The notes below the pieces were generated by a model. The model saw only the letters and a program-made list of their open reading frames with translations, did no database searches and was not told the origin of the DNA. The position numbers were made by a program, and so were the translations under genes. A stretch of 53,636 bases of DNA from Candidatus Omnitrophota bacterium. Its GTDB lineage: Bacteria > Omnitrophota > Gorgyraeia > JABMRN01 > RBG-13-46-9. Location of the stretch: the NCBI GenBank assembly GCA_016782445.1, contig JADHYM010000003.1:1-53636 (forward strand), given 5' to 3'. Shown here piece by piece: positions 45,661 to 53,636 of this stretch (positions within the stretch are counted from its first letter, which is position 1; each line of letters opens with the position of its first letter).

Positions 45661-46064
45661 TAGTCGGGACCGGCATAGACATAGTTGAAATATCGCGCTT
45701 TCGCCTCGCGAAGAAGAAGTGGGGCCGGAATTTTATCCAGAAGATCTTTACGGAAGGCGAAATAGAATATTCCAAAAAAAGGCGCTTTCAGGACCAGCAT
45801 TTCGCGGCGCGCTTCGCGGCGAAGGAAGCGGTTTTAAAGGCATTTGGCGACAAACTCTCCAGTATACGGAACTGGCAGGACATAGAGGTCTTGAACGACA
45901 AAAGCGGCAGGCCCTACATAAAATTTCATCGTAGCGCCAAAGAGCTGAAGGCCAAAGAAAAAATAAAAGATGTTGTGGTTAGCATGGCGCATTGCAGGGA
46001 GCACGCCGTCGCTAACGCTATCCTGATTTCAGAAGACAGAAAACAGAAGACAGAAGACAGATAG
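45657..46064 (+). CDS. acpS: Holo-[acyl-carrier-protein] synthase
   Basis: GTGIDIVEISRF and FAAKEAVLKA. Confidence 0.85.
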   Translation: MIVGTGIDIVEISRFRLAKKKWGRNFIQKIFTEGEIEYSKKRRFQDQHFAARFAAKEAVLKAFGDKLSSIRNWQDIEVLNDKSGRPYIKFHRSAKELKAKEKIKDVVVSMAHCREHAVANAILISEDRKQKTEDR

Positions 46065-46122
46065 TTTTTCTGTCTTCTGACCTCCGACTTCTGTTATCTG
46101 AACGGGACAAGGGGAGAATTAA

Positions 46123-46980
46123 ATGGTAAAGCAACATATAGCTAAGATACCTACAAGGGGAGAAGATACGCAGAAAGGCGACTTTGGGCACGTGTTTGTT
46201 CTGGCAGGCTCAGCCGGTATGACAGGTGCGGCGTATCTTACTTCGCAGGCTGCAATCCGTTCGGGAAGCGGGCTTGTAACCTGCGGAATCCCAAAGAGTC
46301 TAAACCTCGTTATGGAAGCGAAGCTTACCGAGGTTATGACGCTTCCGCTTCCGGAAGCGAAAGGGCAGGCCCTTTGCTTTGCGGCTCTTGAGAAAATAGT
46401 TTCATTTTCAGAAAAAATAAATTCTCTCGCCGTGGGACCCGGAATATCGCGCAATAAAGACACGGGGAAACTCGTGCGGGAAGTAATAAAGAAGGTAAAC
46501 AGGCCTCTCGTGCTTGATGCGGATGGTATAGTTTCCATTGTAGGAAAGTGCGATCTTTTACAAAAACGAAAAGCCCCTACGATTCTTACTCCGCATCCGG
46601 GAGAAATGGCGCGTCTTCTCGGGAAAGCGACTGAATTTGTACAAGCTGCGCGCGTAAAACTTGCGAAAGATTTCGCTAAAAAACATAAAGTCGTTCTTGT
46701 TCTTAAGGGATATCGAACTATTGTAGCGAGTCCGAAGGGCGAGATTTATTTAAACGAAACCGGAAACTCCGGCATGTCAACTGCCGGAGTCGGGGACGTT
46801 CTTACGGGCATGATAGCGAGTTTCGTCGGACAGGGGATAGAGGCCTATAGCGCGGCAGTTATCGGAACATACCTGCATGGTAAGGCCGGCGACCTGGCCT
46901 CACGCGATAAAGGCCAATTCGGCATGATCGCGAGCGATCTTTTAGAAAAGCTCCCGGAAGCGATAATAGAAGAAGTTTAA
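46123..46980 (+). CDS. nnrD: ADP-dependent NAD(P)H-hydrate dehydratase (YjeF C-terminal type)
   Basis: KGDFGHVFVLAGSAGMTGAAYL, LTPHPGE and GMSTAGVGDVLTG. Confidence 0.85.
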   Translation: MVKQHIAKIPTRGEDTQKGDFGHVFVLAGSAGMTGAAYLTSQAAIRSGSGLVTCGIPKSLNLVMEAKLTEVMTLPLPEAKGQALCFAALEKIVSFSEKINSLAVGPGISRNKDTGKLVREVIKKVNRPLVLDADGIVSIVGKCDLLQKRKAPTILTPHPGEMARLLGKATEFVQAARVKLAKDFAKKHKVVLVLKGYRTIVASPKGEIYLNETGNSGMSTAGVGDVLTGMIASFVGQGIEAYSAAVIGTYLHGKAGDLASRDKGQFGMIASDLLEKLPEAIIEEV

Positions 46981-47002
46981 GCCGGGGCAGCAAGATAGAT
47001 TT

Positions 47003-47075
47003 GCCGAGGTAGCTCAGCTGGTAGAGCAGGGGTTTTGTAAACCTCAGGTCGCTGGTTCGATCCCAGTCCTCGGCT
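47003..47075 (+). tRNA. tRNA-Thr (UGU)
   Basis: gccgagg-ta-gctc..gagc-a-ggggt-TTTGTAA-acctc-aggtc-gctgg-ttcgatc-ccagt-cctcggc-t. No CCA is encoded. Confidence 0.9.
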
Positions 47076-47089
47076 CGTATTTGAAATTC

Positions 47090-47175
47090 GGGGAGATGGC
47101 AGAGTAGTCAAATGCACCAGACTGTAAATCTGGCGACTTCGGTCTACGAAGGTGCGAATCCTTCTCTCCCCACCA
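47090..47175 (+). tRNA. tRNA-Tyr (GUA), long variable arm
   Basis: ggggaga...cagaCTGTAAAtctg..., a long variable arm (gcgacttcggtctac), a T arm, then tctcccc-a-CCA. Confidence 0.9.
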
Positions 47176-47298
47176 TTCTACTTCGCCCCATTGCTTACGC
47201 GTGGGGCTTCGTAGGAATTACAACGTTAGCGAAGTAGAATGTTGTTCCTTCGAAGCCATGAGCGAAAGCATCATGGCGAAGAAGAACCATATTCAAAT
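47176..47298 (+). ncRNA. Candidate structured RNA tail of the tRNA-Thr/Tyr transcript
   Basis: Stem ttctacttcgc (47176-47186) pairs with gcgaagtagaa (47229-47239) and encloses the ccccA..Tgggg hairpin. A second ~15 bp interrupted hairpin spans 47244-47287. The terminator follows at 47299. Confidence 0.35.
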
Positions 47299-47328
47299 GG
47301 AAATGAATACAAATCATTTCCCTTTTTT
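47299..47328 (+). terminator. Rho-independent terminator of the tRNA-Thr/Tyr unit
   Basis: ggaaatga, 7 nt loop, tcatttcc, then c-TTTTTT. Confidence 0.7.
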
Positions 47329-47388
47329 ATATGGGTATCGCCTACGCGATGGGGAATGTTAGGAGATAAAAAAGTGACATTGATTTGA

Positions 47389-47417
47389 TTGACGGTTGAC
47401 AAGTTTTAGCGTATAAT
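47389..47417 (+). promoter_or_regulatory. Promoter of the 1605-aa ORF
   Basis: TTGACG (47389-47394), 17 nt spacer, TATAAT (47412-47417). The predicted leader is about 100 nt. Confidence 0.6.
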
Positions 47418-47525
47418 ATACTCAAGACGCGAGTAAACCTTCTGCTTCGTAATATAAGGAGAAAGCCGGAGGTATTTTTTTGAAACTTTTGTTAGTGCTT
47501 AAAAAAGTCAAAAAGGAGCTATTAG

Positions 47526-50500
47526 GTGACTAAAGACGCGAGATCTAACGGTGGTCTATCCAGAGCCACACACCCTTATAATACACTATTAAGCGTAGTA
47601 TTAAGAGGCTATTGTTGTAGGGCAGCCGCTTTAATAACAGCCATAGCCTTCTTTTGTACATCCATTCCGATTGAAAAATCATATGCGCAGGCACTCAAAC
47701 CTGCGATCCCGCAAAAAATATTAAATACCGAGACCTTCAGCTTGCCAACGCATCTTGGTCGCATCCTGGATTCATGGAGTCCAACTAGACAATCAACCAA
47801 TTCACAAATTAATCAAACGATAATACATGTCCAGGACGCGCATTGTAACTACGCTGCGCAGAAAAAAATTGCTGAAATAGTCAAATATCTGAATAACGAG
47901 TATAGCATAAATGCGGTAAATCTTGAAGGAGGCAAGGGCGATTACGATTTATCGATATTTACCCGTATTAAGGACCTCAGGACAAGGGAAAAGGTGACTG
48001 ATTATTTCGTTAAAGAAGGCCTTGTCAACGGCGCTGAATACTTTGCGTCTAACAATCCCGGGAAGGTCAGTCTATGGGGCGTAGAAGAAACAGGGCTATA
48101 TATCGAGAATCTGAACGCATACCGCGACGTACTTCAACATAAAGAGGAAATCGACAAACATCTCAAAATCCTAAATCACATCATAAGCAATTTCAAATTT
48201 CACATTTATCCTGAAGAACTATTGGAGGCCGATCGGAAATATGGCCGGTACAAAGCGGGTAATATTGATTTAAAGGAATACGTCGGTTTTCTTGTTATGG
48301 CGGCGGAAAAAAGAGCAATTGATATTACGGCATACCCTAATTTGTTTGTCTTACATGAGGCACTCCGGCAGGAGGGGGAGATAGATTTTAAGATTGCCGA
48401 CATAGAGCGCAGCCGACTCATTGACGTATTCCGGAAGACGCTTTCGAAGATAGAGCTTGAGAGGCTCGTAATAAAGACAGTTGAATTTAAATCAGATAAA
48501 ATCAAAGAACAGGAGTTTTACGCATATCTTGTAAACAAAGCGCGATTCCTGAATCTTGATCTTGCAGCTTTTTCCGCGCTTCAAAAATACGTCACTTATA
48601 TCGATGCCTATGCCTCTATCGATAAAACAAAAATACCCGCGGAGCTCGATTCGCTTGATAGAGATATAAAGGAAACGCTTTTTACCTCTGAAATCGAAAG
48701 GCGGCTCAATGCCCTTTCGAAGAACCTTGCTATCTTGCGGAACATGTTTAACGTTACTCTAATCCCCGATGACTATAAATATTATATTAAAAATAGAGAG
48801 TCTTTCAGTGTAAGCGAATACGTTTCGTTTATTGCGAAAAATGCACCGCTTTATAAGATACAGGCAAAACCCGATAAAAATATTTCAAATCTCAATTCCT
48901 ACCGTGAAAAAATGCAGCGTTTCTACGAATGTTCAAAAAAACGAGATGAGGTGTTTTTAAGAAACCTTAGATGGGGACAGGTCTCAGGGCAGGCTGGCGT
49001 AATACCTGGAAGAGACCTGTCCCCATCCGAACGCACCACCGCTCTCGTCACAGGAGGGTTTCACGCAGAAAATCTACACGAGCTTTTTAAAAAGAACAAC
49101 ATTTCGTATATCTCCATAATGCCGAATTTCAAGAACGAAGGGGGCTACGAATGCCCGTATTTTAAGATACTTTCAGGGAAAAAAAGCTTAGATATAGCCA
49201 ATGCCTTACCATCCGTTCTCGGCAACGCCCTTGCGATACCCGACCCGCTAAGTCCGGCGATGATGAAGGCTGTTCTCGACCATGCTGCACTCGCCAAGCG
49301 GCCTGATCCCCGCGTGTCTCTTGCGAACGGTGGGATGAGCCCGGAGGGGGTAGCGTATTTAGCGTTAAACGAAAGCGCTGAGGAACTGGTAGAGCATGTT
49401 ACGGCCGGGCATATATTACCGGAACAGGTAAACGTTGTGCGCGACGCGTTGCAAGCGAATCTTACAAAGCTCGAAAGATTCGATATACTGTTAAAATTGA
49501 ACAATAACGTCCGCGCCTTATATGAGCAGTTCTTTCAAGGAGGATCTAAAAGAAGCCCTGAATCCGCAATCGCCGAAGGATGCATGTCAGTGAATTCAGT
49601 TTTAGGTGTTTTGCTCAATGGGAGAGGCGGCTGGAAAGTTGATTTAATCTATAAAGAAATCGGAGATGACGAACACTGGTACCTTTTAGTTAATGAGAAA
49701 TTTATTGTTGATGCCTATCCATCATGGCTCCGACTAAGCCCGGATAGAGAAGTGCGCAAAATGGCCGAAGAGAAAAAAATTATTATTATGACTACAGAAC
49801 AGGCGGAAAGTAGCGGCAAGGCTGATATCGCGAAGTGGTATAGCGGGCCTTATTTAATTCCTTCAGAAAATTATATAGTTACAGCTGAAAATGCCGCAAA
49901 AAATATTCTAAGAGAATGTGGCTTGGAAACTATTTCTGTAACCGAATGGTTTGATGCGCAGCGGGAAGTGGCCGGAAGTTACATCGCCTCATTCGGCCTG
50001 GAAGAAATAGTTGGGCTGGACGAAAGCGAGATAGCAGGCCTTGCTCATGTTCCTGGCCTACAAACAGAAATCCGCCGCATAGTAAGCTCGTTTTCCAATC
50101 AATCCCCCGCTTGTGAATCGGTTGGCTTTGATGGCTCGGAGCGATGGCAGCAATTAAATCTAATGAAAAAGCAACTAGAGAGACTAATAGAAGTTAGAGA
50201 GCAAAGCGGTGAGAAGAGCATTCTAATATACGATATAGGCATCGGAAGAAAAGCAACTGAGACCGAAAAAATCATCAAGTGGCTGAACCGCGTATTGAGG
50301 GGTATGGCAGGTAAGGGTAAAATAACGCTGCGCGGGTGGAGAATTGATCTGATAGCGGTTGATACGAAAAAAGAGCTGGTAAGTGCCGCAGAAAACAACA
50401 TGAAAATAAGGCAATTGAGTGAAGCCTCCGCGGAATGGCTTAAGATTTATTTTGAACACGCAGATGCGCTGAACGCAACAAGGCTTACGCAAATATCGCG

Positions 50501-52343
50501 CGGTAAAGGCGATTTTATTTTCTATCGCCATACTGACTACTCAAACATGAGAGCACAGTCACTTATGCAGCGCTTGATCAAACTGCGCGAAGGCAATCTT
50601 CATGTATTGCGAAACCTTCTTAGGACTTATATAGCCAGGCGAAACATTTTTCGAGTTCTTAGCAAAGCGGGTAGCGTTTTTGTAATTGAACCAATATCCG
50701 GGCCGGCCACAGAAGGCGAAGACGTTGGGGAGGTTTCGGTTATACCCGGCACCAGACTCTTAACCGCTTCAGAATTGCTTTCTCGCGAACCTTCTTCCGC
50801 TATGAGTTTAGCGGACCGGGGCACTGGCATATACAGAATTAGTAATCCGCACGCAATATATGAGGCCGGATTGAACAATTTTTTAGAAAAGCAACCTTCG
50901 GTTGCTCTTGAAGCATTGCCCGAAGGCGTCTATAGTGTAGATAAATTTCCGCGACTTACCGAGAAGATAATAGAATCATTGGTAGGGATGTACCATCAAG
51001 GACTTCGTGGCCCAGATGCGCCTTTAGAGTCCGGACGCTTATCAGGTTATAGAGAGATGTTCAAAAACATGCTTCAAACTGAAAAGATAAATTTTGCGAT
51101 TAAAAATGGAGTAATGGTCGGCTTTGTACGTTTCTCGTTGAATAAGCCTGGTGGAGCTGCAAAAGTTGGTAACGCCTTAGTTGTTCAAGAAGAATGGCAC
51201 CATGGCATTGCCTCTCATCTTGTAGATAGCGCTATAGATGCAATCGTTAGAGGTAAAGATGGTCAAACGCTTGAATTTGAGGCCTTGCCGTGCATGATGT
51301 CATTTCATTTGGAACACTATTTACCAAGCCGCCGCAAAGAGAGCAGCAATAATCCAAACTCATGGTATCTTGAGTGGAGAACGCAGCCTGTTGAGGATAC
51401 CGTATGGGGAGATGCAGCAGTTGCAACTGACAGAGTTGCTCTTATACTAACAGCACATATGCGGCCTGTTGAAGGATTGAAAAGCGTGACAATGGATGGT
51501 AGAGCAAAAAAAGCTAATAAGATATCTGAGGCCAAAAAAATATATGACGCTGCAGAGGCGCTTGTTCCTGCGGTGGCAAAATTAATACGGCGCGATGTCC
51601 CGACATACGACATTGCGCCTATTCCCTACGAAGAGGCGAATGAGACTTTCTCTTACGCCAGAAAAATTGAACAATTGCTTCAAAAGGCAAACCACCAAAT
51701 ACACTTAAATCACTACAGAATCGGTAACAACGAGAACGGCTACGAAAATCTTATCCAGCAGGTTGATGGACAACTGGAGAATTTTATAAAAGACGTAGAG
51801 GAAAACCCCGGGGCACGAATGATAATACGAACTGTCGACGGCATAGCCGGCACGAGAAGTAGGATAATTTCTCACCTTATGAGCAATCAAGAGGGGGCTC
51901 GAGGCGTGCTAACTAAAATGGTTGCACGCGGAGAACTTACGCTTGAACAAAGAGACAAGATTATGTCAAGGATCAAAATAATTGAAATGGATATTGGCAG
52001 AGAGCCAAGGCACCTCAACACTGTTATCGATCTTTTTGTTGACCTCACGGCGATAGAAATTGACAGATATGTTTCAGGTTATTATCAGGTAGGGGATGCC
52101 GGAAAGGATAGGGAGAATCTTAAAAAACTAAAGAACGGTTTTTTGTCACTTTTAAAACTTTCAGTTGATAATTTTAGTGATCTAGAAGCTGCGGCTCTAA
52201 ACTTGGATAGCAACCGACAGGCTCTCGCAGAAAATGTTTTACACTTAATTTTTACAGACAAAAAGCTTATTATCCACGCAATTGACTGGGAGTCCTTAAG
52301 AGATCTTAAGAAACGAAGAGAGGAAATATTGTATTCGCTATAA
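47526..52343 (+). CDS. Orphan 1605-aa exported multidomain protein (Tiki/TraB-like, Cys-His-Asp papain/transglutaminase-like, class I SAM-MTase-like, GNAT-like, unknown C-terminus)
   Basis: The GTG start follows an in-frame TAG, with GGAG 7 nt upstream. The signal-like segment is AAALITAIAFFCTSIPIEKSYA-QA. Motifs read by eye:
- IIHVQDAH(101-106)...NLEGG(134)...VTGGFH(513)
- GC(686)MSVNSVLGVLL...EH(717)WYLLV...IVD(729)AYP
- ILIYDIGIGRKA...IDLIAVDTKKEL...YFEHADAL...GDFIFYRHT
- ALVVQEEWHHGIASHLVDSAIDAI. Confidence 0.75.
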   Translation: MTKDARSNGGLSRATHPYNTLLSVVLRGYCCRAAALITAIAFFCTSIPIEKSYAQALKPAIPQKILNTETFSLPTHLGRILDSWSPTRQSTNSQINQTIIHVQDAHCNYAAQKKIAEIVKYLNNEYSINAVNLEGGKGDYDLSIFTRIKDLRTREKVTDYFVKEGLVNGAEYFASNNPGKVSLWGVEETGLYIENLNAYRDVLQHKEEIDKHLKILNHIISNFKFHIYPEELLEADRKYGRYKAGNIDLKEYVGFLVMAAEKRAIDITAYPNLFVLHEALRQEGEIDFKIADIERSRLIDVFRKTLSKIELERLVIKTVEFKSDKIKEQEFYAYLVNKARFLNLDLAAFSALQKYVTYIDAYASIDKTKIPAELDSLDRDIKETLFTSEIERRLNALSKNLAILRNMFNVTLIPDDYKYYIKNRESFSVSEYVSFIAKNAPLYKIQAKPDKNISNLNSYREKMQRFYECSKKRDEVFLRNLRWGQVSGQAGVIPGRDLSPSERTTALVTGGFHAENLHELFKKNNISYISIMPNFKNEGGYECPYFKILSGKKSLDIANALPSVLGNALAIPDPLSPAMMKAVLDHAALAKRPDPRVSLANGGMSPEGVAYLALNESAEELVEHVTAGHILPEQVNVVRDALQANLTKLERFDILLKLNNNVRALYEQFFQGGSKRSPESAIAEGCMSVNSVLGVLLNGRGGWKVDLIYKEIGDDEHWYLLVNEKFIVDAYPSWLRLSPDREVRKMAEEKKIIIMTTEQAESSGKADIAKWYSGPYLIPSENYIVTAENAAKNILRECGLETISVTEWFDAQREVAGSYIASFGLEEIVGLDESEIAGLAHVPGLQTEIRRIVSSFSNQSPACESVGFDGSERWQQLNLMKKQLERLIEVREQSGEKSILIYDIGIGRKATETEKIIKWLNRVLRGMAGKGKITLRGWRIDLIAVDTKKELVSAAENNMKIRQLSEASAEWLKIYFEHADALNATRLTQISRGKGDFIFYRHTDYSNMRAQSLMQRLIKLREGNLHVLRNLLRTYIARRNIFRVLSKAGSVFVIEPISGPATEGEDVGEVSVIPGTRLLTASELLSREPSSAMSLADRGTGIYRISNPHAIYEAGLNNFLEKQPSVALEALPEGVYSVDKFPRLTEKIIESLVGMYHQGLRGPDAPLESGRLSGYREMFKNMLQTEKINFAIKNGVMVGFVRFSLNKPGGAAKVGNALVVQEEWHHGIASHLVDSAIDAIVRGKDGQTLEFEALPCMMSFHLEHYLPSRRKESSNNPNSWYLEWRTQPVEDTVWGDAAVATDRVALILTAHMRPVEGLKSVTMDGRAKKANKISEAKKIYDAAEALVPAVAKLIRRDVPTYDIAPIPYEEANETFSYARKIEQLLQKANHQIHLNHYRIGNNENGYENLIQQVDGQLENFIKDVEENPGARMIIRTVDGIAGTRSRIISHLMSNQEGARGVLTKMVARGELTLEQRDKIMSRIKIIEMDIGREPRHLNTVIDLFVDLTAIEIDRYVSGYYQVGDAGKDRENLKKLKNGFLSLLKLSVDNFSDLEAAALNLDSNRQALAENVLHLIFTDKKLIIHAIDWESLRDLKKRREEILYSL

Positions 52344-52349
52344 TATTGT

Positions 52350-52416
52350 GGCTGTCGGAACGCCCCGAGGGGCTACTCGCGTCGCCCCGGTTAAAGAGCC
52401 GACAGTCCTTTTTTTT
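52350..52416 (+). terminator. Rho-independent terminator of the 1605-aa ORF
   Basis: ggctgtcgg (52350-52358) pairs with ccgacag(t)cc (52399-52408). There is an inner GC-rich hairpin gccccgaggggc, followed by T8 (52409-52416). Confidence 0.7.
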
Positions 52417-52439
52417 GTTCATTTTTTCTAACCCGTTGG

Positions 52440-52562
52440 GCGTCATTCGGTTGCGGTTGCGTCGTGCGAAACGTCGGGCGTCGAACGTTTGCGTACATTC
52501 CTCACGCAACCGGTCGACTCAACCGTTTCCTGCGACGCCACCGACCGACGCTCCAGCAATCA
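52440..52562 (+). repeat. Dispersed intergenic repeat, copy E (long form)
   Basis: gcgtcattcggttgcggttgcgtcgtgcgaaacgtcgggcgtcgaacgtttgcgtacattcctcacgcaaccggtcgactcaaccgtttcctgcgacgccaccgaccg... is colinear with copy A. Confidence 0.8.
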
Positions 52563-52582
52563 CTGCTTGGCTTAGCTCATAC

Positions 52583-52611
52583 TTGACAAATGCCATACCC
52601 GATGGTATTAT
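52583..52611 (+). promoter_or_regulatory. Promoter of tRNA-Gly
   Basis: TTGACA (52583-52588), 17 nt spacer, TATTAT (52606-52611), about 20 nt upstream of the tRNA 5' end. Confidence 0.65.
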
Positions 52612-52631
52612 TACACAGCATAAAGGGCTTC

Positions 52632-52705
52632 GCGGGAGTAGTTCAATGGTAGAACGGCAGCCTTCCAAGCTGCTCACGGCGGTTCGATTCCGCTCTCCCG
52701 CTCCA
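52632..52705 (+). tRNA. tRNA-Gly (UCC)
   Basis: gcgggag-ta-gttc..gaac-g-gcagc-CTTCCAA-gctgc-tcac-ggcgg-ttcgatt-ccgct-ctcccgc-t-CCA. Confidence 0.9.
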
Positions 52706-52758
52706 TTTCTGCCCCTAAAAAGCCTTCAAAAATAAATCAAAAAAAGTTAAGAATACCC

Positions 52759-52786
52759 TTGACAAAAACCTCAAATATGGTATGAT
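52759..52786 (+). promoter_or_regulatory. Extended -10 promoter of the LAGLIDADG-like ORF
   Basis: TTGACA (52759-52764), 16 nt spacer ending in TGg, then TATGAT (52781-52786). Confidence 0.6.
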
Positions 52787-52839
52787 GTTGAACTTGTTTA
52801 CATCCGAAGGGTGAGTTTCGCCTACAGAAGAGGAAAAGC

Positions 52840-53511
52840 ATGCAACTCGCTGAAATCATAAGAAGTTACAAACGCGGAAATTCGGTAAACGAAGTGGCAA
52901 CACTTTTTCGTCTTTCGCCGAACAGGGTACGCGACGTGCTTAGTAATTATGATATAATAATGAGAAGTCACAGAGAGGCCGCATATCTTAAAAATAACAA
53001 AAACGGCGACCCGTTCGACATACTTACAGAGTTAACGCCGGAAGAAGAGCATTTGAAGGCGATGGCCCTCGGCCTTTATCTCACTGAAGGAAATCTGAAA
53101 AACAAAAATTCCGTGCGGTTCTCCAATTCAAACCCGGCCCTCGTCAAGATTTTCGTTAAATTCCTGAAAGTTATATGCGGCGTTGCAAGCGAAAAAATAA
53201 AACTCTCTCTCATAATTTATCCGGATGTTTCCGCAAAAGTGTCAAAAGAATACTGGGCGAAATTTCTGGACCTTCCGGTAAAACAGTTTACAAAAACAAC
53301 AGTTCTTAAAAACAGAAAAAGCTCTCACGCAAAAAGGCATCACTCTGAGCTTGGAACGATCACGATATATGTTCATAATACGAAGCTTTTAGGCATTATA
53401 AAAGAATGGGCAAAAGAATACGCCCATGTAGCTCAGCTGGTAGAGCACATCCATGGTAAGGATGGGGTCGCCGGTTCGATTCCGGCCGTGGGCTCTCTTA
53501 AAAGGAGGTAA
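52840..53511 (+). CDS. HTH + single-motif LAGLIDADG-like homing endonuclease family protein; 3' end overlaps tRNA-Thr(GGU)
   Basis: N-terminal HTH-like NSVNEVATLFRLSPNRVRDVL. The LAGLIDADG-like motif is AMALGLYLTEGN, followed by SVRFSNSNPALVKIFVKFLKVI, typical of free-standing members. The last ~30 codons (AHVAQLVEHIHGKDGVAGSIPAVGS) are the tRNA gene read as protein. Confidence 0.6.
   Translation: MQLAEIIRSYKRGNSVNEVATLFRLSPNRVRDVLSNYDIIMRSHREAAYLKNNKNGDPFDILTELTPEEEHLKAMALGLYLTEGNLKNKNSVRFSNSNPALVKIFVKFLKVICGVASEKIKLSLIIYPDVSAKVSKEYWAKFLDLPVKQFTKTTVLKNRKSSHAKRHHSELGTITIYVHNTKLLGIIKEWAKEYAHVAQLVEHIHGKDGVAGSIPAVGSLKRR
53422..53494 (+). tRNA. tRNA-Thr (GGU)
   Basis: gcccatg-ta-gctc..gagc-a-catcc-ATGGTAA-ggatg-gggtc-gccgg-ttcgatt-ccggc-cgtgggc-t. 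No CCA is encoded. Confidence 0.9.
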
Positions 53512-53514
53512 AAT

Positions 53515-53636
53515 ATGGCAAAAGCAAAATTTGAACGCACCAAACCCCACATAAACGTGGGCACGATCGGTCACATCGACCACGGAAAGACGTGTCTGAC
53601 AAGCGCCATAACAAAGACGCTTGCTGTTAAGGGTCA
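53515..53636 (+). CDS. tuf: Elongation factor Tu, 3' end cut by window edge
   Basis: AAGGAGG upstream of the start, and [26 protein letters not shown]. Confidence 0.95.

Follow-up and report, generated by a model that had tools for sequence, protein, structure and literature searches.

Between the tRNA-Tyr and tRNA-Gly genes of a Candidatus Omnitrophota genome there lies a single open reading frame (ORF) for a protein of 1605 amino acids (aa), and the question raised by this locus is what such a protein is, whether it leaves the cell and what it might do there. The DNA analysed, called the window below, is the whole stretch of 53,636 nucleotides (nt) of contig JADHYM010000003.1 (assembly GCA_016782445.1, forward strand). 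The initial annotation, made from the sequence without database searches, took the gene product for an orphan multi-enzyme protein. The searches presented here give a different answer: the 1605-aa protein belongs to a large family of modular exported proteins, hitherto undescribed and restricted to Omnitrophota, and the cassettes that these proteins carry between a conserved head and a conserved tail differ almost completely between members, even at one chromosomal locus.

A family of probably exported proteins with constant ends

A search of 5.8 billion proteins yielded more than 140 protein clusters of 880-2800 aa related to the 1605-aa protein, and 120 listed relatives were taken for the family-wide analyses. 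Every named protein cluster of the family belongs to Candidatus Omnitrophota. When one genome per GTDB species was scanned, the family head was found encoded at 407 loci; the loci listed all come from Omnitrophota metagenome-assembled genomes, some of them labelled 'uncultured Planctomycetia', and among the best 80 loci there are up to three per assembly. The supposed orphan is therefore one member of a very large paralogous family, and an identical protein is present on a metagenome contig in ENA. Neither the family nor its leader was found described in Pfam, NCBIfam and Rfam or in the literature that could be searched. Head and tail are both without a covering model in Pfam, NCBIfam or PADLOC, the PADLOC anti-phage defence models gave no match at E <= 0.01, and searches of the whole protein against Pfam, NCBIfam and PDB sequences returned only a sub-threshold GNAT match. 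Modular exported multi-enzyme proteins as a kind are already known from Omnitrophota. The parts of the protein are as follows.

47526 to 52343, + strand: ORF encoding 1605 aa from a GTG start codon
47526 to 47687, + strand: predicted Sec-type signal or signal anchor (aa 1-54), core aa 31-49, SYA/QA site, read from hydropathy and charge asymmetry
47709 to 49295, + strand: conserved head (aa 62-590), a putative TIKI/Ere-like alpha/beta hydrolase core with a helical insert, found in 120/120 listed relatives
48970 to 49027, + strand: in-frame palindromic insert in the head-coding region (aa 482-501), 58 nt with a perfect 16-bp stem and a 26-nt loop, -38.5 kcal/mol
49488 to 49730, + strand: Cys-His-Asp module (residues 655-735; C686, H717, D728), recognised at the level of a motif
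50133 to 50915, + strand: methyltransferase-like Rossmann module (aa ~870-1130), Omnitrophota-specific, with weak profile matches
51060 to 51410, + strand: GNAT acetyltransferase-like module (aa ~1179-1295), Pfam PF00583
51498 to 52340, + strand: conserved tail (aa ~1325-1605), an alpha/beta domain ending exactly at the C-terminus

The GTG start codon is supported by the many homologs which align from residue 1. Residues 31-49 are the sole hydrophobic segment of the protein, and the AlphaFold2 model predicts a helix at residues 20-46. The signal features of 87 relatives whose N-termini are complete were read by hand: the 15 residues preceding the hydrophobic core are rich in K and R and carry a charge of about +3 to +6, the core itself has about 15 residues, and its C-side flank is neutral to acidic (about 0 to -3). 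An AxA-like small-x-small site follows the core (..WAA in relatives, SYA/QA in the query), so that the positive n-region, hydrophobic h-region and AxA-type c-region of a Sec protein are all present. Six more distant head-bearing proteins also start with an N-terminal hydrophobic segment, mostly a short classical signal peptide. By the positive-inside rule these charges imply translocation of the bulk of the protein, and export of the 1605-aa protein is considered highly probable. The initial proposal of an N-terminal Sec signal or anchor is borne out in this respect, the Sec-signal features being conserved family-wide and the hydrophobic segment not being internal.

The head (residues ~62-590) retains 35-66% identity across relatives. 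In the AlphaFold2 model of residues 1-625 (predicted local distance difference test, pLDDT, 80.7; predicted template modelling score, pTM, 0.72) its core consists of strands 98-104, 130-133, 182-186, 504-510 and 527-533 with intervening helices, and is split by an all-helical insert of about 290 residues (189-479). Residues Q103, D104, H106, C107, Q112, E134, G135, R473, D474, F477, G510, G511, F512 and H513 are invariant in 120/120 members. Proteins of the TIKI/erythromycin-esterase superfamily carry an acidic-x-His motif, Glu, Arg and a second His on a parallel-sheet core, with the catalytic residues E47, H50, E78, R261 and H289 in EreC, H85 and E113 in Bcr135, and E3900, H3902, E3930, R4001 and H4030 in RRSP. 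The predicted model of the head has the parallel strands with flanking helices, and D104-x-H106, E134, R473 and H513 correspond to the catalytic set with Asp, not Glu, as the first acidic residue; the His-to-Glu spacing of 28 is the same as in EreC, Bcr135 and RRSP. Six of the 50 top PDB chains in a Foldseek search belong to the TIKI superfamily (four entries: EreC 6xcq, 6xcs; Bcr135 3b55, 2rad A+B; HopBA1 5t09), a recurrence which is suggestive only. On the predicted fold and the residue set it is fairly probable that the head works like a TIKI/Ere hydrolase, while its membership in the superfamily is not established by standard significance criteria. The first 'protease-like' module of the initial annotation corresponds to this TIKI/Ere-like head, whose catalytic-type residues are kept in all 120 homologs.

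The cysteine next to the first histidine (C107 beside H106 in Q-D-A-H-C-N, window 47841-47846), invariant in 120/120, is A, S or V in the distant head-bearing proteins; in the core family specifically, it might serve as a nucleophile or bind a metal. The same head opens six proteins of 2.0-7.2 kAA (thousand amino acids; up to 7238 aa) which also contain the methyltransferase-like module; five of these retain H106, E134, R473 and H513, with C107 replaced, and for the sixth (P0134) no alignment of the C-terminal motifs was made. An alpha-pore-forming toxin (AhlB, AhlC, SmhB) was considered for the helical insert and rejected, the matches being those of generic helical bundles with probability <= 0.06. 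The palindrome at 48970-49027 encodes the region of the low-confidence loop 486-493 of the model; it occurs also in the locus of the closest homolog (L001) with compensatory changes in the stem, is absent from L089 (a locus syntenic with the window) and from the distant head-bearing proteins examined, and might represent either a small palindromic element or a hairpin that has a function inside the coding sequence.

The last ~340 residues, in which no recognisable motif had been noticed at first, contain the conserved family tail. It is detectable in 79/120 relatives and ends within 1 aa of the C-terminus in 78 of these 79; of the 41 members in which no tail can be detected, many are incomplete proteins encoded at the ends of contigs. 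The tail closes with the motif IRPIDWK..DEWK.AQ..L.SL, and the AlphaFold2 model of residues 1310-1605 (pLDDT 86.1, pTM 0.84) shows a four-stranded parallel alpha/beta fold followed by helices. No functional assignment of the tail was retained, as Foldseek gave only generic Rossmann-like matches (HGPRT, F1-ATPase; best E 0.008 in PDB and 0.013 in BFVD). An ORF upstream of the family gene in locus L076 was tried as a divergent tail and rejected by the hidden Markov model of the tail.

What lies between head and tail is far from constant. About 46 of the 120 members, ~900-1100 aa long, consist of head and tail with a short linker only, and the remaining members hold 0.2-2.2 kAA in between, so that cassette length ranges from 0 to ~2200 aa. 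Among 88 cassettes longer than 150 aa, similarity was found in 6.8% of 3828 pairs; the query cassette is similar to none of the others at E<1e-5, with a weaker GNAT match to P0025. Methyltransferases, HATPase_c, phosphoenolpyruvate (PEP)-utilisers, protein kinase, SpoIIE, patatin, metallophosphatase, GT2, M48/M50 peptidases and TPR/HEAT repeats are met in the cassettes of other members.

The cassette of the query was searched exhaustively by HMMER (residues 600-1330 against 1.84 billion representatives), which gave 39 matching proteins; a word-indexed search with the same residues missed even the identical protein, and its negative outcome was not read as absence. Most of the 39 matches fall on the methyltransferase-like module, which occurs in 1-3 copies in proteins of 0.4-7.5 kAA, the named carriers all being long Omnitrophota proteins. 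In 21 relatives G905, G907, E912, W938, D946, D996, R1001, P1074 and G1101 are invariant; the motif I region reads I-Y-D-I-G-I-G, with G905 and G907 invariant and the third glycine absent, and D946 stands at the end of the next strand. The best PDB profile match is an mRNA cap N7-methyltransferase (E 0.36), whose top-scoring stretch covers motif II while motif I falls in a weaker stretch, and Pfam Methyltransf_31 matches two of the 21 relatives at E 0.005 and not the query itself. These profiles weakly suggest that residues ~870-1130 are methyltransferase-like. For the Cys-His-Asp module, P0136 (53% identity) was the one homolog among the 1.84 billion representatives; C686, H717 and D728 are conserved there. 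The module has no Pfam or PDB sequence match and is at most a candidate for a papain- or transglutaminase-like cysteine peptidase. The GNAT module passes its Pfam cut-off as an isolated segment (PF00583, aa 1141-1309, 22.5 bits against 20.7, E 1.5e-4) and reaches 18.6 bits in the whole protein. At the acetyl-CoA motif position (Q/R-x-x-G-x-G/A) it reads W-H-H-G-I-A, where G-x-A is kept and W replaces Q/R; related GNAT-type modules occur in P0025, P0147, P0152 and P0158, and the reading of residues ~1179-1295 as a GNAT domain is supported by the profile. Four enzyme-like modules in series had been proposed: the serial arrangement stands and GNAT passes the Pfam test, whereas the methyltransferase-like and Cys-His-Asp modules amount to motifs or weak profile matches.

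Beside these carriers, ten proteins (P0123, P0129, P0131-P0133, P0137, P0138, P0141, P0148, P0153) combine the methyltransferase-like module with a signal peptide and a different conserved N-terminal segment, ..LP.PG.MV.LSP.F.P..LKGIKVHPDNPF.FDFI.., which suggests a second 'head' family of modular exported proteins.

The leader RNA and the tRNA-cluster slot

The gene is accompanied by its own expression signals, listed here with the leader.

47389 to 47417, + strand: sigma-70-like promoter TTGACG-17-TATAAT, 11/12 consensus match
47418 to 47555, + strand: family-specific leader and translation-initiation RNA motif of ~140 nt (covariance model R1, 97.2 bits, E 7e-15)
47426 to 47435, + strand: 5' box GACGCGAGTA at the transcript start, the first 8 nt of which repeat the hairpin-loop box at 47535-47542
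47437 to 47481, + strand: predicted attenuator-like hairpin (47437-47473), then a U-run (47475-47481)
47515 to 47518, + strand: ribosome-binding site GGAG, 7 nt before GTG
47519 to 47551, + strand: start-codon hairpin predicted by RNAalifold, arms 47519-47526 and 47544-47551, with the GACGCGAG box in the loop
52350 to 52417, + strand: intrinsic-terminator-like hairpin with U8 (9-bp stem 52350-52407, -28.4 kcal/mol, z -2.2)

The self-contained transcription unit proposed initially is recovered in all its elements, that is, a promoter-like site, a ~100-nt leader, GGAG 7 nt before GTG and a terminator whose stem stands directly 3' of the stop codon. Since 16 promoter-like sites were observed in the region and 10.8 +/- 3.3 were expected, the single 11/12 match is not significant alone. 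Compared with the closest homolog's locus, the DNA of the window is 86-88% identical from the -10 box to the start codon, only 35-38% upstream of ~47356 and only 40-66% in the signal-peptide codons.

Model R1 has one match in the window. In 680 kb, comprising the window and 90 loci, it gave 47 matches (E <= 0.01), one per locus, each of them at the 5' end of a family gene and on the same strand as that gene, and none in gene-free loci. The 4227 covariance models of Rfam found only four tRNAs in 46000-53636 at E <= 0.1.

RNAalifold applied to 16 leaders predicts two helices. The first is a hairpin with an invariant GGUA and U6-9, located ~50 nt before the start codon; in most leaders of the common form (type A) that were examined, equivalent hairpins of -9 to -22 kcal/mol with U6-9 lie 45-59 nt before the start (74 nt once). 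The second is an 8-bp hairpin, CUAUUAGA / UCUAAUAG, which encloses the start codon and whose 3' arm is made of the R-S-N codons. In the 16-sequence alignment 89.8% of cells are paired versus 31-44% with slid partners, and none of 500 shuffles reached the observed value. The 38-sequence alignment, which was fitted to the covariance model and is thus biased towards structure, has 90.8% of cells paired, with compensatory changes in 18/18 pairs, among them 10/10 pairs of helix 1. In the start-codon hairpin 96% of cells are paired and the one-sided changes all lead to G-U; clear compensatory variants are AUAUUUGAG/CUCAAAUAU in L048 and CCAAGA/UCUUGG in L018. Covariation supports the helices as real, and the leader RNA is a candidate for a new cis-regulatory motif.

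The N-terminal codons for D-A-R-S-N read GAC GCT AGA TCT AAT in 21 of 23 cases (~20 loci in different genomes). The synonymous sites of the R-S-N codons would be invariant because they form the 3' arm of the hairpin, and conservation of the peptide 'DARSN' is accordingly attributed to RNA pairing and not to protein function. The leader box (also written GACGCUAG) is found twice per locus, at the 5' end and in the hairpin loop; the two copies match each other, and the 5' copies in other loci follow their own coding-sequence variant of the box. A strict 27-nt pattern scanned through metagenomes gave 4 matches only.

Two further observations concern the leader. Inside the terminator there is an anti-box, TACTCGCGTC (52374-52383), the exact reverse complement of the 10-nt 5' box, and syntenic L089 has the anti-box CTCGCGTC inside its own terminator at the same offset (+34; window +33) with different flanks. 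Four other complete family genes have no anti-box, and it was dropped as a general feature of the family; box and anti-box could be a 5'-3' RNA pairing or a pair of DNA sites. A second form of leader, type B (L003, L017, L046, L050, L060, L064, L067), differs by additional sequence inserted after the U-run and before the start hairpin, and in some of these the ATTAGA arm is moved further upstream, so that the Shine-Dalgarno sequence falls inside the loop; such leaders have lower R1 scores or are missed.

The edges of the slot which the gene occupies, and the contents of the same slot in related loci, are the following.

47003 to 47175, + strand: tRNA-Thr(UGU) and tRNA-Tyr(GUA), upstream edge of the variable slot
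52632 to 52705, + strand: tRNA-Gly(UCC), downstream edge of the slot
53422 to 53495: tRNA-Thr(GGU), after tRNA-Gly
Window: the Tyr/Gly slot holds the 1605-aa family gene
L087/L088 (FtsH 82% and NnrD 65% identical, flanking order kept): slot empty, with Thr, Tyr and Gly contiguous
L089 (FtsH 78% identical, FtsH...NnrD order kept): slot holds a 2538-aa member with only head and tail in common with the query
L048 (NnrD, tRNA-Thr and tRNA-Tyr before the family gene): slot holds a family gene of at least 1592 aa, cassette unrelated
L028 (tRNA-Tyr before the family gene): slot holds a family gene of at least 1566 aa, cassette unrelated

The order Thr(UGU)-Tyr-Gly(UCC)-Thr(GGU) is that of the E. coli thrU-tyrU-glyT-thrT-tufB operon. 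The 1605-aa gene thus occupies a slot of gain and loss between tRNA-Tyr and tRNA-Gly, and the cassettes of L048 and L028 are unrelated to that of the query and to one another. The next slot, between Gly and Thr, varies too: in the window it contains an ORF with a helix-turn-helix (HTH) match, L089 has a GGDEF gene there, L088 an unrelated signal-peptide protein of 1075 aa, and L076 a family member. The ORF of the window (52840-53511, 223 aa), situated between tRNA-Gly and tRNA-Thr, runs into the tRNA-Thr gene; it has a weak N-terminal HTH_28 match (E 3e-4), a LAGLIDADG-like LGLYLTEGN noticed by eye and no PADLOC match. Each inserted unit of the window has its own promoter-like site (52583-52611 and 52759-52786). 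A general association of family genes with tRNA genes was rejected: only 4 of 83 loci of the genome scan and syntenic L089 are tRNA-adjacent, all at the Thr-Tyr-Gly cluster, which makes it one particular locus. Elsewhere, no conserved gene neighbours were found in the family loci examined. Variation of the tRNA-cluster slot fits the hypervariable regions around EF-Tu and ribosomal operons that have been reported for Omnitrophota.

The gene stands out also in composition. Its neighbours are housekeeping genes (TilS, FtsH, FolP, CdaA, YbbR, PdxJ, AcpS, NnrD), and the best named relatives of the flanking FtsH are all from Omnitrophota (65-83% identity). The GC content of the gene is 0.434 versus 0.475 for 43 neighbouring ORFs (z -1.6), GC at third codon positions (GC3) is 0.420 versus 0.524 (z -2.7), and the codon-usage distance to the pooled neighbours is 1.01 versus 0.57 +/- 0.12 for long genes, exceeding every long gene. 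The AT-richness at first noticed by eye is borne out by these values, and the gene is atypical in composition.

The effector question and competing explanations

What would an exported protein of this kind do? The best explanation overall, to which we give about an even chance, is that of an exported head-cassette-tail protein, regulated by its leader, with which an episymbiotic nanobacterium would possess a cassette-type effector, either secreted or located on its surface. The protein would be translocated by Sec, and the head would be an active hydrolase (protease or esterase) outside the cytoplasm. The leader would co-regulate the family, with premature termination and start-codon occlusion by default, both relieved by a common factor. 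The variable cassette would supply diversifying activities aimed at a partner cell, host or prey, which in turn provides S-adenosylmethionine (SAM), acetyl-CoA and ATP.

This explanation is favoured because modules of the SAM, acetyl-CoA and ATP type would find no cofactors outside the cytoplasm once exported, because the cassettes are hypervariable, and because effector modules of the TIKI fold have precedents in RRSP of MARTX, PMT and HopBA1. Omnitrophota are described as host-dependent, episymbiotic or predatory in the literature, and the predatory or epibiotic lifestyle guessed from the DNA agrees with this description of the phylum, to which FtsH and the relatives of the protein belong. 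It is plausible that the cassette acts in or on a partner cell.

A number of results weigh against this explanation. About 40% of family members have no cassette at all, which implies that the core function resides in head and tail and does not require effector delivery. In the gene neighbourhoods examined there is no secretion system, chaperone, immunity gene or conserved neighbour, and no target was found. The signal peptide was judged manually, not by a trained predictor. The methyltransferase-like and Cys-His-Asp modules have no significant matches in Pfam or PDB and may be non-catalytic. As to the head, Foldseek against PDB gave nothing significant (best E 0.24; best TIKI member E 0.44, probability 0.14), hhalign against E. 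coli YbaP of the TraB family gave no signal (probability <1%), neither Pfam nor NCBIfam matches the head, Pfam does not match core constructs with the insert deleted either, and Asp replaces Glu at the first acidic position. A PDB profile search with the head and tail alignment likewise gave no TIKI match, only low-complexity artefacts (SNF5, huntingtin). Finally, the leader of the window folds no better than shuffled sequence (z 0.35); its helices are supported by covariation, and a regulatory role is what we infer from them.

The effector explanation can be drawn more sharply as a platform, in which a constant TIKI-like protease head and the tail would form a processing and delivery scaffold, cassettes would be swapped at fixed loci by a MARTX-like logic reached independently, and all paralogs would be switched on together by the leader, for example on host contact. 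In this full form it is rather unlikely.

Another explanation, also to be called unlikely, places the protein in the producer's own envelope: head and tail would be a periplasmic or surface hydrolase that processes, for instance, peptides or esters (cf. PrgY/TraB, ChaN, Tiki), and the cassettes would modify or bind the cell's own surface polymers and never be delivered. Many TIKI-superfamily members do act outside the cytoplasm on the producer's side, the commonest form of the family (~900-1100 aa, 46/120) is head and tail with a short linker, and there is no delivery machinery nearby. However, cassettes of the methyltransferase, GNAT, kinase, HATPase, PEP-utiliser and glycosyltransferase type need cytoplasmic cofactors, and the extreme cassette turnover at one locus together with atypical codon usage fits genes of conflict or interaction better.

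In a further explanation the N-terminal helix would tether the protein to the inner face of the membrane, and its modules would work in the producer's cytoplasm, the whole forming a scaffold for regulation or metabolism. The protein would then be a smaller counterpart of the giant Omnitrophota multi-enzyme proteins with transmembrane (TM) targeting only. The module types are indeed those of cytoplasmic enzymes, and the same types dominate 'module 1' of the giant proteins, 46% of which are predicted to be TM-only. This arrangement is nevertheless improbable, as the positive-inside charges in 87 sequences (+3 to +6 on the N-side, 0 to -3 on the C-side), a hydrophobic core of only ~15 residues followed by AxA-like sites, and classical cleavable signal peptides in the distant head-bearing proteins speak against it. 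Cargo of a mobile or hypervariable island, e.g. a polymorphic toxin against competing bacteria with the boxes as recombination sites for cassette exchange and not RNA, would agree with presence/absence variation of the tRNA-cluster slot, with the hypervariable regions reported around EF-Tu and ribosomal operons in Omnitrophota, with the 10-nt inverted boxes flanking the window unit (8 nt of the terminator copy are conserved in L089) and with the atypical GC3 and codon usage, yet it is very improbable, given that no integrase, transposase or immunity gene adjoins the 1605-aa gene, that the one-sided G-U changes and many compensatory changes favour RNA over DNA sites, and that the anti-box is missing from four other complete family genes.

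Known systems and meaning for Omnitrophota

The effector explanation, like the family itself, can be set beside several known systems. With the TIKI/Ere superfamily (EreA-D, Bcr135/136, ChaN, TraB/PrgY/GumN, Tiki1/2, RRSP, PMT C1-C2, HopBA1) the head shares the predicted parallel beta-sheet with flanking helices, and acidic-x-His, Glu, Arg and a second His (in G-G-F-H of the head) in the same order and secondary-structure context. It differs by Asp for the first Glu, the ~290-aa helical insert, the invariant Cys beside the first His, and fusion to a signal peptide, cassette and dedicated tail; no sequence or structure score to any member is significant.

The giant 'Archaeovorin'-type class 1 proteins come from the same phylum (West-Roberts et al. 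2023 preprint; Nielsen and Lui 2026 preprint). According to these preprints, they too combine methyltransferase, GNAT, HATPase_c, PPDK_N, TPR/HEAT, glycosyltransferase and peptidase modules on one polypeptide and are mostly targeted by a signal peptide or TM segment. The methyltransferase-like module of the query recurs in Omnitrophota proteins of 2-7.5 kAA, some with the same head. The sets studied in the preprints are of >=10 kAA, whereas the family described here has 0.9-2.8 kAA, and unlike the giant proteins it has a defined head/tail scaffold, a single hydrophobic segment, an RNA leader and no neighbouring type II-like secretion locus. The scaffold, the leader and related features of the family are not described in the available parts of the giant-protein preprints or in the wider literature searched.

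With MARTX and polymorphic toxins the analogy is architectural only: conserved ends flank a variable array of enzyme modules, which in MARTX includes the TIKI-fold module RRSP. Pfam searches of the query and nine relatives detected neither RTX or glycine-rich repeats nor a cysteine protease domain or a type I secretion signal at the C-terminus, and unlike MARTX the family carries an N-terminal Sec signal, has no immunity gene that was found and shows no sequence relationship. The leader resembles attenuators of ribosomal-protein and amino-acid operons in its terminator-like hairpin and U-run between promoter and start codon, translation-initiation hairpins in its occlusion of the start codon, and the extended signal peptide regions of large autotransporters in that an extreme N-terminal peptide is conserved among large exported proteins. 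It differs from known leaders in having no evident leader peptide, ligand-binding fold or Rfam match, and in its duplicated boxes at the 5' end and in the loop.

The leader is a shared RNA element with strong covariation, and it demonstrates how RNA structure can give rise, as a side effect, to conservation of an N-terminal peptide. Gain, loss and cassette replacement in the deeply conserved thrU-tyrU-glyT-thrT cluster offer a clean marker of accessory-gene turnover beside core translation genes, a turnover which has recently been reported for Omnitrophota. These bacteria are abundant, uncultured and ultra-small and are thought to live on other cells, and attention has so far been given to their giant genes. 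The family described here is a more tractable object: its proteins, at 1-3 kAA, are numerous, spread over many species and small enough to be expressed and assayed, with a constant scaffold, a probable active site and a hypervariable payload. A constant scaffold combined with a hypervariable payload is the pattern expected of host-interaction genes.

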